This document shows positions 9,726 through 15,998 of a stretch of 64,000 nucleotides of DNA, in pieces. The translations under genes and the position numbers were made by a program. A model generated the notes under the pieces. It had not been told where the DNA came from and searched no databases. It saw only the letters and a program-made list of their open reading frames with translations. Every line of letters begins with the position of its first letter. The first letter of the stretch is position 1. The DNA is from Clostridia bacterium (GTDB lineage: Bacteria; Bacillota; DSM-521; Neomoorellales; SLTJ01): positions 3,157 to 67,156 of the forward strand of contig SLTJ01000021.1 in NCBI GenBank assembly GCA_004347685.1. Reading direction: 5' to 3'.

Positions 9726-10208
9726 CTAATGCTCGGTGAACCTTCCTTGCAGGATTTCCAGGCCATGCGGGAGGGCGGGTAAAATGGCCTCCAGGCATTC
9801 CCGCACGGCCTTGGGGCTGCCGGGGAGGTTGACGATCAAGGTGCGGCCGCGGGTGGCGGCCACGGCCCGGGAAAGCATGGCCATGGGCGTGGCCTTGAGG
9901 CTGGCCAGGCGCATGGCCTCGGCTATCCCCGGTACCGGCCGTTCGGCCACGGCCCGGGTGGCCTCCGGGGTCACGTCCCTGGGGGCCAGGCCGGTGCCGC
10001 CGGTGGTGAGGAGCAAATCCACCCGTTCCTGGTCGCACCAGGCCCGCAGGGTGGCGGCCAGCAGTTCCTTTTCGTCAGGCAGGATTTCATAGGCCACCAC
10101 CTCGCCCGGCAGGGTGGCCACCATCTCCCGGATTACCTCCGCGCTCCTGTCTTCCCGCTCCCCGGCTGCGCCTTTGTCGCTGGCGGTGATTATCCCTACC
10201 CGGATCAC
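9726..10208 (-). CDS. mog: Molybdopterin adenylyltransferase (MogA/MoaB family)
   Basis: ITASDK, LTTGGTGLAPRDVTPEAT, NLPGSPKAV. Confidence 0.93.
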   Translation of the reverse strand: MIRVGIITASDKGAAGEREDRSAEVIREMVATLPGEVVAYEILPDEKELLAATLRAWCDQERVDLLLTTGGTGLAPRDVTPEATRAVAERPVPGIAEAMRLASLKATPMAMLSRAVAATRGRTLIVNLPGSPKAVRECLEAILPALPHGLEILQGRFTEH

Positions 10209-10642
10209 GATTCGGTCACCTCAATATGGTCGCCAGCCGCCACCGGCCCCCCTTCCAGGACGGCGGCGAAGAGCCCCTCCCTAGGCATGATACAGTCGCC
10301 CGTTCGCTGGTAAATAGAGCACTTGCTGTGGCATTTCTTCCCGATCTGGGTGATCTCCAGCAACACCCCCCGGCTGGTGCGCAGCCGGGTGCCCACCGGC
10401 AGGCGGAGGAGGTCTATGCCTTCCGTGGTCAGATTTTCGGCGAAATCACCCGGGCCAAGTTCACCCATATCTTCCCGCGCCCGGCCGATAGATTCCATGC
10501 TCAGCAGGCTGACCTGCCGGTGCCAGGGCCCGGCGTGGGCATCACCCTCCAGACCGTGCCCAGCCACCAGCGTTCCCTGATTCACGTTAACCTTGGGTTC
10601 ACCCTTACGGTCACTGCGGCAGACAGCCACTATCCTTCCCAT
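10205..10642 (-). CDS. MOSC domain protein
   Basis: [36 protein letters not shown]...C.I...GDCIMPREG. Confidence 0.92.
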
Positions 10643-11124
10643 ACTTCCTCTCCTTCCCGCAGGTAGTGCCCGGAGCGGCCCCCGGACTTTTCCACCAGGC
10701 GCACGTCTTCGATCACCATGCCCCGGTCTACGGCCTTCAACATGTCGTATACAGCCAGACAGGCCACACTAACGGCCGTAAGGGCTTCCATTTCCACCCC
10801 GGTGCGGCCGGTGGTCTTGACCCGGGATTGGACTTCGATGACCCCGGCTACCGCATCCACCCTTACCTCCACGGCCACGGCGGTCAGCGGCAGGGGGTGG
10901 CAGAGGGGAATGAGGCGGCTGGTCTCCTTGGCGGCCATAATGCCGGCCAGCCGGGCCACCCCCAGGACATCTCCTTTGGCCACCTGGCCTTCCTTGACCA
11001 GTTGCAGCGCCTCCGGCCGCACCCGTACCCGGCCCCGGGCCACTGCCTCCCGCCCGGTCACGTCTTTATCCGAAACATCCACCATCCGGGCCTGGCCCCG
11101 ACTGTCCACATGGGTCAGCTCCAT
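10630..11124 (-). CDS. moaC: Cyclic pyranopterin monophosphate synthase MoaC
   Basis: [47 protein letters not shown] before ATG 11124. Confidence 0.96.
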
Positions 11125-11253
11125 GACGAAATCCTCCCGCACCAATCTCTGGCGAAAATCCCCTCCGGGGTTCATACCGGCCCGCGGCCCGGAGAGCCGT
11201 GAAGATTATCCGGCCGGCGTCGCACGCCGGAGACCGCGCCCCGCCCGCCATAT

Positions 11254-12225
11254 TTACCCCCCGATCTGCGACATATATGTGCCCGGTCCCGGCTCACCCG
11301 GCGGCACCCGCGGGTGGGCCTGCGGTTTACCCAGGATGGCCTGCCGGAAGAGGGCCACGATCTCCTCCCGGGAGGCCCCCCGCCGCAGCGGGCCCTTGAC
11401 CTCAATTTCGGCGTCACTATAGAGGCAGGAACGCAGTCCCCCCAGGGCGGTGAGCCGCACGCGGTTGCACCGGGAGCAGATTTCCCCGGTGCGTCCGCCG
11501 ATAATTCCCACTGTGCCGGCCGCGCCGGGCCGGGTAAAACTCTCGGCCGGGCCGTTCCCGGCCGGCGGGTGTACCGGGAGGCGCCAGCCCAGGCGCTCCA
11601 GCTCGGCCGTTATTTCCACCTCAGGTACTGGCTTCCCCCACCGGGCCCCTTGGCCGACGGGCATGATTTCAATGAAGCGCACGTGCACCGGGTAGCGGTA
11701 GGCCAGTTCGCAAAAGGCGGGAATTTCGTCAAAGTTGAGGTCCCTGGCCACCACGGTATTGATCTTGACCGGCGACAAGCCCACAGCGTAAGCCGCCCGC
11801 AGCCCGGCCAGCACCTGCGTTAGGTCACCGCCCCGGGTAAGGTGGACGAATCTGGCGGGATCCAGGGTGTCCAGGCTGACGTTCACCCGGTCCAGGCCGC
11901 TGGCCTTCAGTTCTTCAGCCCGGGCCGCGAGCAAGGTACCATTTGTGGTCAGGGAGATTTCCTCCATGCCGGCTTCCTTCAGGGCGCGCACCAGGTAGGC
12001 CAAGTTCTTGCGTACCAGGGGTTCCCCGCCGGTAAGGCGCACCCGCCTGATCCCTACTTCGGTTGCGCACCGGCCCAGGTAGGCGATTTCCTCCAGGCGC
12101 AGTATTTCTCCTGCCGGCCGCAGGGTCACGCCTTCCTCCGGCATGCAGTAGCGGCAACGGAGATTGCACCGGTCAGTAACGGCTATCCGCAGGTAATTTA
12201 TCTCCCGCCCGAAGGAATCCAGCAT
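11254..12225 (-). CDS. moaA: GTP 3',8-cyclase MoaA (radical SAM)
   Basis: LRIAVTDRCNLRCRYC, RLTGGEPL, C..CNRVRLT...L.SCL, C-terminal MSQIGG. Confidence 0.97.
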   Translation of the reverse strand: MLDSFGREINYLRIAVTDRCNLRCRYCMPEEGVTLRPAGEILRLEEIAYLGRCATEVGIRRVRLTGGEPLVRKNLAYLVRALKEAGMEEISLTTNGTLLAARAEELKASGLDRVNVSLDTLDPARFVHLTRGGDLTQVLAGLRAAYAVGLSPVKINTVVARDLNFDEIPAFCELAYRYPVHVRFIEIMPVGQGARWGKPVPEVEITAELERLGWRLPVHPPAGNGPAESFTRPGAAGTVGIIGGRTGEICSRCNRVRLTALGGLRSCLYSDAEIEVKGPLRRGASREEIVALFRQAILGKPQAHPRVPPGEPGPGTYMSQIGG

Positions 12226-12276
12226 TTTCTCGCCCCCCTTACCCTTTCCCAAAAGAACCTCAAAAAAGGCGAAAGC

Positions 12277-15475: not shown

Positions 15476-15652
15476 CTAGAAACATCCTAACTCGCAGGCC
15501 ATTATCTTCACTCCAAGCTGGTCGCAAGCCTCCCCTACCAGCCTCACCTCCACGCCGAGCCGGGCGGCGATTTCCCGGGCCCCGGTGCAGGTGATCTTTT
15601 TTTCCCGAGACGCTTCTTGTACTGCGGTCAAAACCTGTTCCGGTACAGTCAA
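15476..15652 (-). CDS. Small Cys-rich protein (58 aa) of unknown function, first gene of the Moco operon; not in the ORF track
   Basis: RBS GAGGGAGGAG, TTG start: MTVPEQVLTAVQEASREKKITCTGAREIAARLGVEVRLVGEACDQLGVKIMACELGCF*. Four Cys; ends 20 bp before moeA. Confidence 0.8.
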   Translation of the reverse strand: MTVPEQVLTAVQEASREKKITCTGAREIAARLGVEVRLVGEACDQLGVKIMACELGCF

Positions 15653-15790
15653 ACTGCTCCCTCCCTCACCATGTTGTGGTCGCCGTCAGCTCTACCCACG
15701 CCAGCCCGGCAGGCGGCGCTGGCCGCCAATCCTTCACCAAATCCCTGGTAATTCCCGGCCTTCGCCCCGCCAGTTACCTGGCCGGTGATA

Positions 15791-15816
15791 AATGAGGCGC
15801 CGCTACCGGCGCCTGG
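15791..15816 (-). terminator. Hairpin downstream of the Moco aptamer (possible expression platform)
   Basis: AGGCGCCG-GTAG-CGGCGCCT followed by CATTTAT (weak U tract). Confidence 0.45.
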
Positions 15817-15832
15817 GATTACCACAACTAGA

Positions 15833-15950
15833 GCTCCTTTCCAAGCACGGGAGGGAGGTGAATTTCTTCACCGCCCCGGCACTACCTCGGTAGCAGGCTG
15901 CTGGCCATAGCCTTTGCGGGCCTTAGGTCGGACAGCTCGGAGCCGCTATT
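15833..15950 (-). ncRNA. Moco/Tuco (molybdenum/tungsten cofactor) riboswitch
   Basis: Minus strand CTCCGAGCTGTCCGACCTAAGG...TATGGCC...CCTCCCGTGCTTGGAAAGGAG matches the motif as I recall it, and it lies upstream of Moco genes. Confidence 0.88.
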
Positions 15951-15969
15951 CACTTTGCCACTTAACGGG

Positions 15970-15998
15970 ATTATACCACCGTTTTCGGGACTGCACAA
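15970..15998 (-). promoter_or_regulatory. SigA promoter of the Moco operon
   Basis: TTGTGC-17 nt-TATAAT with an extended TG. Confidence 0.75.

Follow-up and report, generated by a model that had tools for sequence, protein, structure and literature searches.

We describe a small gene, whose product we call S, that heads an operon for the biosynthesis of the molybdenum or tungsten cofactor (Moco or Wco). The gene resides in a 64,000-nucleotide stretch of DNA (hereafter the window) from a Clostridia bacterium (GenBank assembly GCA_004347685.1, contig SLTJ01000021.1, positions 3,157 to 67,156), where its open reading frame (ORF) runs from position 15652 to 15476 on the minus strand and codes for 58 amino acids from a TTG start codon. 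It follows a Moco riboswitch as the first gene of the operon and shares both transcription and regulation with the Moco genes downstream (Table 1). Because S is small, conserved, riboswitch-controlled, travels with moeA, and is fused to MobB-like NTPases in some organisms, we consider it a candidate for an accessory function in cofactor assembly. Specifically, we tentatively favor a model where S is a thiolate-based accessory that works with MoeA and MobB at the stage of Moco or Wco synthesis where the metal is supplied, inserted, or handed over. The sequence comparisons described below make this model plausible, but they stop short of making it probable.

The original prediction, which was made from the letters of the window and omitted the strand of the feature, had proposed a TTG start with a strong ribosome-binding site, a C-x20-C-x9-C-x3-C-F-stop pattern ending in ACELGCF, and a location just ahead of moeA. 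All of these features are present. The Shine-Dalgarno (SD) sequence GAGGGAGGGAG is located 4 nucleotides upstream of the start codon, the translation carries cysteines at positions 22, 43, 53, and 57, and 19 nucleotides separate the S stop codon from the ATG of moeA. The residues surrounding C22 read I-T-C-T-G-A.

As judged by comparison with its relatives, S is a genuine and conserved gene, because its orthologues differ mainly at synonymous positions and because it has hundreds of homologues. A word-index search recovered two orthologues, P0004 and P0005, that are 81% and 79% identical to S and retain both the reading frame and the synteny, and the locus L003 carries an S orthologue in an identical operon. 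Over codons 18 to 58, 17 codons distinguish L003 from the window, 14 by synonymous and 3 by non-synonymous changes. In another orthologous locus (L004), an ATG is present at the codon aligned with the TTG of S, which fixes the position of the start. A phmmer search of 1.84 billion cluster representatives yielded 511 matches to S at E ≤ 1e-3 (24 of them at E ≤ 1e-10), and a profile search of a 5.8-billion-sequence set yielded 895 S-family clusters at E ≤ 1e-5. The word-index search had returned no longer forms of S, but the exhaustive search did, and so the first result reflects a failure of sensitivity.

The S family has no family model, solved structure, or description in the literature. The protein matches nothing in Pfam or NCBIfam even at E ≤ 1, and a literature search for its C-terminal motifs and for DUF7645 found no paper. 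Homologues from Desulfofundulus, Pelotomaculum, Desulforamulus putei, Desulfofalx, Syntrophomonadaceae, and others are labelled 'hypothetical protein' in their sources. Some members of 57 to 63 amino acids (P0216 from Thermosyntropha lipolytica, P0262, P0156, and P0281) are recorded instead as 'LAO/AO transport system kinase' or 'putative N-acetylmannosamine-6-phosphate epimerase', misleading labels that probably stem from fusion proteins.

An alignment of 27 single-domain members reveals nine invariant residues (C22, A25, A29, G40, C53, L55, G56, C57, and F58), and K49 and I50 are almost invariant. The invariant residues hold across eight phylum-level groups, and nearly all of the 27 proteins terminate directly after the final phenylalanine. 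Thus homologues with conserved cysteines, as anticipated by the original prediction, do exist. However, its four-cysteine motif does not survive the alignment, since C43 varies and tandem forms of the protein keep only the equivalents of C22 and C53. The conserved core of the family consists of C22, C53, L55, G56, and F58, with C43 outside it.

An AlphaFold (AF2) model built with the 27-sequence alignment (pLDDT 86.9) includes a helix (residues 5-14), a strand (19-21), two further helices (22-32 and 36-46), a second strand (49-51), and a tail of lower confidence (52-58). The model suggests that S adopts a minimal winged-helix-like fold with H-beta-H-H-beta order in a domain of about 55 residues. 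In this model, C22 caps the N-terminus of helix 2, and C53 and C57 are positioned on the flexible tail that follows the second strand. A Foldseek search of the PDB with the model returned nothing at E ≤ 1e-3 (best E 0.84), and the best match of a VIA structure search had a Z score of 5.7, which is below noise (L11 C-terminal domain, NuoE N-terminal helices, and homeodomains). A sequence profile search of the PDB gave only a designed repeat protein, which matched via low-complexity helices, and a search of the ESM Atlas gave only unnamed clusters of about 56 amino acids.

Fusion architectures were drawn from 150 of the 511 phmmer representatives. The S domain occurs alone (57-100 amino acids), as tandem pairs (114-160 amino acids) whose repeats end in CQLGLF/CQLGAF or CQLGCF/CQLGCW, and as a C-terminal extension of MobB-like P-loop proteins, DUF1847, HycI (hydrogenase maturation protease), or HemD. 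It is always the C-terminal domain in these fusions. Once the tandem forms are included, the C22 and C53 equivalents are the sole universal cysteines, and the penultimate cysteine is lost. The tandem forms suggest that single-domain S would dimerize into a unit that carries four invariant cysteines.

A Thermodesulfovibrio protein (L063) is a MobB-S fusion whose match to the Pfam MobB model (36 bits) is above threshold. Another MobB-like-S fusion (P0013) aligns with the MobB-positive fusion at E 9e-22, and MobB-like fusions from separate phyla show homology along their entire length. The gene for P0013 adjoins genes for a MobA-type NTP_transf_3 protein, AFOR, and a MoaD-like ThiS protein. In Actinomycetota, a 289-amino-acid MobB-like-S fusion (L079) is 41% identical to P0013 and is located between two Moco riboswitches, the second of which heads genes for a TupA-type PBP_like_2 protein and an ABC permease. 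The HycI and DUF1847 fusions likewise suggest, from domain architecture, a connection to metallocentre maturation.

Some additional arrangements were observed among these architectures. An S gene or MobB-like-S fusion bracketed by two Moco riboswitches is found in Actinomycetota at L079:2775-3902 and L058:2548-2898. The Thermodesulfovibrio MobB-S fusion (L063:1011-3801) is positioned beside heme-synthesis genes, namely a cytochrome c assembly-type gene and hemA, and the representative P0054 is a HemD-tandem-S fusion; both cases connect S with tetrapyrrole genes.

The original prediction had further tied S to loci for molybdenum or tungsten (Mo/W) metabolism, and this link proves to be strong and is found at many loci. 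S is present in 30 of 41 relatives, and in 12 of 19 of the relatives' loci the Moco riboswitch (RF01055) is located directly upstream of the S gene. For a broader view we used 121 genomes drawn evenly from the phylum, all at least 90% complete, with counts made without phylogenetic correction. S is found in 56 of these genomes. MoaC is encoded by 54 of the 56 carriers, whereas only 2 of the 34 genomes that lack MoaC carry S. The S gene is located within 5.6 kb of moaC in 35 carriers, lies 2.7 to 3.3 kb upstream of a PBP_like domain in the order S-moeA-moeA/PBP in 44 carriers, and has RF01055 no more than 460 nucleotides upstream on the same strand in at least 20. When the operon is split, it is the moeA pair, not moaC, that S accompanies (e.g. 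G029, G055, G056, G070, G099, G100, G111, G128, and G133). Thus the conserved genomic partner of S is the pair consisting of moeA and the moeA-PBP fusion gene. Dependence of S on the MoeA-PBP fusion was considered and rejected, because S-less genomes have the fusion just as often.

To look beyond the phylum, one-genome-per-species contigs were searched with a degenerate DNA pattern for K-I-x2-C-x-L-G-C-F-stop, which matched at least 120 stretches. Translation confirmed matches from Acidobacteriota, Thermoleophilia (Actinomycetota), Chloroflexota, Nitrospirota, Ca. Abyssobacteria, Bacteroidales, Clostridium ljungdahlii, and Thermosyntropha lipolytica, and exposed three others (L098, L108, and L115) as chance matches. 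By this measure the S family is spread across many bacterial phyla, mostly of anaerobes. Our own covariance model places a Moco riboswitch beside S in 15 of 80 pattern-derived loci, including some from Actinomycetota and Acidobacteriota, and S frequently adjoins riboswitches either upstream or downstream of them. An obligatory pairing of S with the riboswitch was nonetheless rejected, because S-less operons can carry the riboswitch and many S genes have none. Elsewhere, a single S gene adjoins a MogA/MoaB-type MoCF_biosynth gene, and a tandem S gene is found between genes for MoeA, MoeA-PBP, and a ModE-type helix-turn-helix (HTH) protein on one side and molybdopterin oxidoreductase on the other. 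The S gene of C. ljungdahlii, at L114:3739-3948, follows the genes for a molybdopterin oxidoreductase and its ferredoxin subunit, and S of locus L041 also adjoins a molybdopterin oxidoreductase gene.

In the model we favor, S would act late in the pathway, where the metal is supplied, inserted, and handed over, and not in the formation of the pterin or the dithiolene. The protein, probably a dimer, would transiently ligate Mo, W, or the metal of a freshly made cofactor via C22 and C53, and possibly C57, and would pass the metal to or from MoeA, MobB, or MobA. The functional module would comprise C22 and the tail cysteines, probably brought together at the dimer interface, and the tandem two-domain forms would be covalent dimers with four invariant cysteines per unit. 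S would thus play a role resembling that of the Cys-motif metal-binding modules on other maturation NTPases. The original prediction had proposed a metal chaperone or sulfur carrier in cofactor assembly. The association with Mo/W loci makes this idea reasonable and sharpens it toward the metal-handling steps, in which MoeA and MobB would be the partners of S.

Several observations weigh against this model. Among the 87 MoaC-positive genomes of the phylum sample, 33 are without S; 13 of these carry the moeA/PBP fusion, which is located beside moaC in at least 9. Moreover, S-less operons of the same type exist in which moeA is the first gene. Some tandem S loci have no obvious Moco gene, as in Geobacter hydrogenophilus (L083), and the HemD fusion and hemA neighborhood do not suit a purely Mo/W role. 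Any binding of metal, cofactor, or sulfur by S is wholly inferred, and no solved structure or characterized family resembles the protein above noise in the Foldseek and VIA searches. Furthermore, the Mo/W oxyanion binders known to us (TOBE/Mop, ModA, and TupA) do not hold their ligands by thiolates. We consider S to be an optional, lineage-variable helper and not a core enzyme. A more ambitious proposal is that S is an unrecognized, widespread component of Mo/W cofactor assembly in anaerobes, in which a dimeric thiolate hand-over domain receives Mo, W, or the metal-pterin as it forms, cooperates with MoeA and MobB-type NTPases, and might join an alternative late pathway in lineages without MoaE. 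This proposal as a whole is possible but doubtful.

The lack of MoaE is also central to a different explanation, wherein S would carry a persulfide on C22 and/or a tail cysteine in the manner of TusA or DsrC/TusE and would feed dithiolene formation or cofactor sulfuration, possibly within a route that replaces the MoaE-type molybdopterin synthase. TusA and DsrC/TusE are known persulfide carriers with a cysteine at a helix N-terminus and a penultimate cysteine on a C-terminal tail, respectively, and S has both a cysteine at a helix N-terminus and a penultimate cysteine on a flexible C-terminal tail. MoaE (PF02391) was not found in this 99%-complete genome by a search that was positive in 11 of 14 control genomes. 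The same holds for all 30 of the S carriers among the 41 relatives, in which three MoaE-positive genomes are without S, and seven genomes with neither S nor MoaE are also without MoaC and MOSC. Likewise, no MoaE was detected in four further S carriers, namely Thermosyntropha, C. ljungdahlii, Geobacter hydrogenophilus, and a Thermoleophilia metagenome-assembled genome (MAG). Moco users without MoaE are a documented puzzle, with Geobacter metallireducens and Dehalobacter as examples (PMC2700814, PMC4751268), and MOSC has been proposed as a substitute for MoaE (PMC4751268). In our sets, MOSC co-occurs with MoaE in G031, G034, and G036. In addition, S is located directly ahead of moaA-moaC in three genomes (G039, G090, and G144).

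However, the association between S and the loss of MoaE dissolves in the wider sample. Of the 87 MoaC-positive genomes, 48 carry S without MoaE, 22 carry neither, 6 carry both, and 11 carry only MoaE, and so 22 of the 70 genomes in which MoaE was not found are also without S. The six carriers with MoaE all have a weak MoaE-like gene of 30-41 bits; ten genomes of the sample have only such a gene (about 140 amino acids), and none of the seven genomes with a canonical MoaE (about 130 bits) carries S. A replacement of MoaE by S, which fits the 41 relatives perfectly, was rejected on the basis of these counts. Thus S is over-represented in lineages that lack MoaE, yet such lineages do not require S, nor does carrying S imply the lack of MoaE, and much of the signal reflects shared ancestry. 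Similarly, the link to a missing MoaD/E in the original prediction stands for MoaE in this genome but not for MoaD, given that five genes of the ThiS/MoaD family are present elsewhere in it along with FdhD and a stand-alone MobB, and a specific replacement of MoaE by S is contradicted by the 22 MoaE-less pathway genomes without S and the six carriers of a MoaE-like gene. A sulfur-carrying role is further disfavored by the Thermodesulfovibrio MAG that holds both MoaE and the MobB-S fusion, by a synteny that tracks moeA and MobB and not moaA, moaC, or MOSC, by the FdhD and ThiS/MoaD genes just mentioned, by the loss of the penultimate cysteine in tandem forms, and by the lack of any Pfam match of S to TusA or DsrC. 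We therefore regard this explanation as unlikely, albeit one that merits attention.

The predicted H-beta-H-H-beta fold raises the prospect that S is a minimal winged-helix protein that tunes the operon, either by binding nucleic acid (DNA or RNA, with the leader itself as one possible target) or by binding to MoeA or MobB and acting as a switch that senses redox state or metal. The closest structural neighbors are homeodomains, the RNA-binding C-terminal domain of L11, and Z-alpha, but all of these scores fall below the search tool's own noise level. The sub-threshold Pfam matches are to HTH-type families and DUFs, and S is often immediately beside riboswitches. Against this, S is net acidic (by hand count, 7 K/R versus 8 D/E, for a net charge of -1), and its would-be recognition helix, V-G-E-A-C-D-Q-L-G, includes an invariant glycine and conserved acidic residues that are unlike those of DNA-reading helices. 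DNA binding would also leave the invariant cysteines and the strictly C-terminal tail unexplained, and the recurrent fusion partners of the domain are enzymes and NTPases, not sensor domains. A regulatory function of this kind seems distinctly unlikely.

We also considered whether S might be a passive adaptor, in which it would dock onto or stabilize MoeA or MobB complexes and its cysteines would hold a structural Zn or Fe-S site. Such a function would suit a protein that is small, optionally present, and always C-terminal when fused, and the tandem/dimer logic with four cysteines per unit fits a structural tetrathiolate site. Co-regulation by a riboswitch and the importer neighborhood fit an active role better, although nothing short of biochemistry separates an adaptor from the favored model. 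On balance, we judge this explanation to be quite improbable. Finally, the notion that S is merely a frame left open by chance within a GC-rich leader, which might be entertained for a short, TTG-initiated ORF below the usual cut-offs, can be dismissed with near certainty given its hundreds of homologues, invariant residues, synonymous-dominated divergence, retained synteny, and fusion forms.

Table 1. Features of the S operon and its leader in the window
Feature	Coordinates	Strand	Characteristics and basis
Probable sigma-70 promoter	15970..15998	-	TTGTGC, 17 nt, TGgTATAAT (extended -10); read from sequence, predicted
Moco/Wco riboswitch aptamer RF01055, full length	15818..15954	-	cmscan 69.7 bits vs gathering 36, E 9.3e-15, model 1-135
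GC-rich structured spacer between aptamer and S gene, 165 nt	15653..15817	-	Minimum free energy -88.6 kcal/mol, z -2.77
SD sequence GAGGGAGGGAG	15657..15667	-	4 nt ahead of TTG start; read from sequence
S gene	15476..15652	-	Predicted winged-helix-like domain with C22 and C-terminal C53-x-L-G-C57-F tail; conservation, AF2 model
MoeA, molybdopterin molybdo/tungsto-transferase, 411 aa	14221..15456	-	Pfam MoeA_N, MoCF_biosynth, MoeA_C
Second MoeA fused to PBP_like oxyanion-binding-type domain, 644 aa	12277..14211	-	Pfam MoeA_N/MoCF_biosynth/MoeA_C and PBP_like 253 bits; NCBIfam PRK14498 758.7 bits
MoaA (GTP 3',8-cyclase)	11254..12252	-	TIGR02666 333.6 bits
MoaC	10630..11175	-	Pfam MoaC 196.5 bits
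Small MOSC-domain protein, 145 aa	10205..10642	-	Pfam MOSC 43.7 bits
MoaB/MogA-type MoCF_biosynth protein, last gene of operon	9726..10208	-	Pfam 124.1 bits

The Moco aptamer that the original prediction had placed ahead of S is the RF01055 match (69.7 bits), which was recovered again in a whole-genome search. Located upstream on the same strand, it makes S a member of the Moco-riboswitch regulon. The same genome carries a second, stronger Moco riboswitch (88.8 bits) at G000:C1:40924-41061, and the genomes G075 and G140 have unusually many matches to this riboswitch class, with 17 and 12, respectively. The consensus promoter scan did not report the S promoter, whose -35 element matches the consensus at only 3 of 6 positions. 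The TATAAT element and the start of the leader that follows, CCGTTAAG, are conserved in the orthologous loci L003 and L004. The leaders of these loci (L003:180-531 and L004:3690-4003) do not match RF01055 even at E ≤ 1, though the promoter and the first 30 or so nucleotides are kept. The L004 leader retains aptamer-like segments and may represent a degenerate or variant Moco/Wco aptamer.

The 165-nucleotide spacer occurs only once in the genome, and on that ground the idea that it derives from the hairpin repeat that abounds in this genome was rejected. L003, L004, and the other members of the order have shorter leaders without this spacer, with about 50 to 100 nucleotides at this location in relatives. 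One member of the order (L022) has a clear expression platform of the intrinsic terminator type between the aptamer and the S gene. The spacer of the window is filled by a 58-codon frame (positions 15825-15649, minus strand) with a GTG start located 7 nucleotides past the AGGAG of the aptamer and a TGA that overlaps the TTG of S. The original prediction had called S the first ORF after the aptamer. The riboswitch is indeed upstream, but this GTG frame intervenes, and it is probably not a gene. No homologue was found in 10 relatives, close orthologues do not have the frame in their leaders, and by our estimate the chance of an open frame this long in DNA of this composition is about 18%. We therefore rejected it as a gene, and sequence comparison suggests that it is probably non-coding. 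A leader peptide or translational coupling via this frame is conceivable but unsupported.

Biosynthesis of Moco and Wco is regarded as essentially solved from work on E. coli, plants, and humans, yet many anaerobes are without supposedly essential genes of the pathway. S provides a concrete and cheaply testable candidate for an accessory activity missing from the scheme, for example metal delivery, discrimination between Mo and W, or cofactor hand-over, and it also bears on the role of MobB. If the hand-over model is true, then the E. coli scheme is without a step or partner used by most anaerobic Bacillota, Nitrospirota, Actinomycetota, and others. Carriers of S include acetogens, syntrophs, and sulfate reducers, whose W and Mo enzymes (FDH and AOR) are relevant to the reduction of CO2 and to biotechnology. 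The gene also illustrates how ORFs of fewer than 60 codons at the heads of operons escape annotation.

Among small proteins of known function, S can be compared with the persulfide carriers. TusA affects Moco synthesis in E. coli, and TusA and DsrC/TusE are small helical or alpha-beta proteins whose two cysteine layouts are combined in S. However, S has I-T-C-T-G-A around C22 where TusA (PF01206) has a CPxP motif, and with only 58 amino acids and a C-x3-C tail it differs from the fold of about 100 amino acids and the C-x10-C tail of DsrC/TusE (PF04358). The DsrC/TusE-like penultimate cysteine is confined to single-domain S and is lost in tandem forms. DsrC was not among the matches of the Foldseek and VIA structure searches, which is weak as evidence on the fold. 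MoaD and ThiS (PF02597) are beta-grasp proteins with a Gly-Gly end, whereas the S model is helical and the protein ends in G-C-F. Neither these families nor MoaE gave a Pfam match to S.

The Mop/TOBE molbindins and the Desulfovibrio orange protein are, like S, small, cytoplasmic, and encoded near Mo genes, and they hold molybdate or a Mo cluster. TOBE (PF03459) is an oxyanion-binding beta-barrel that functions independently of cysteines, whereas S is predicted to be mostly helical with two short strands and has no Pfam match to this family, and the orange protein is unrelated to S in sequence. Borderline matches to the uncharacterized HTH-like families DUF7645, DUF7769, and DUF7123 cover the three-helix part (about 45 N-terminal residues) of some S relatives, with scores of 27.8 bits for P0173, 27.0 for P0269, and 26.1 for P0007 (cut-off 27). 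These matches end before the cysteine tail, and S of the window itself has none at E ≤ 1.

In terms of pathway, S is close to MobB (PF03205), a P-loop NTPase accessory of Moco and molybdopterin guanine dinucleotide synthesis that acts at the same stage as proposed for S. MobB-like proteins carry the S domain at their C-terminus in Nitrospirota, Actinomycetota, and others, whereas the characterized MobB proteins known to us, such as that of E. coli, are without this module. S itself lacks a P-loop and is unrelated to MobB in sequence. The CxxCGC motif at the N-terminus of HypB and the CxCC motif of CobW/ZigA are Cys-motif metal-binding modules of maturation NTPases. Although these modules differ from S in fold, metal, and family, and so serve as an analogy only, they likewise join a short cysteine module to a P-loop NTPase that is involved in metallocentre assembly.

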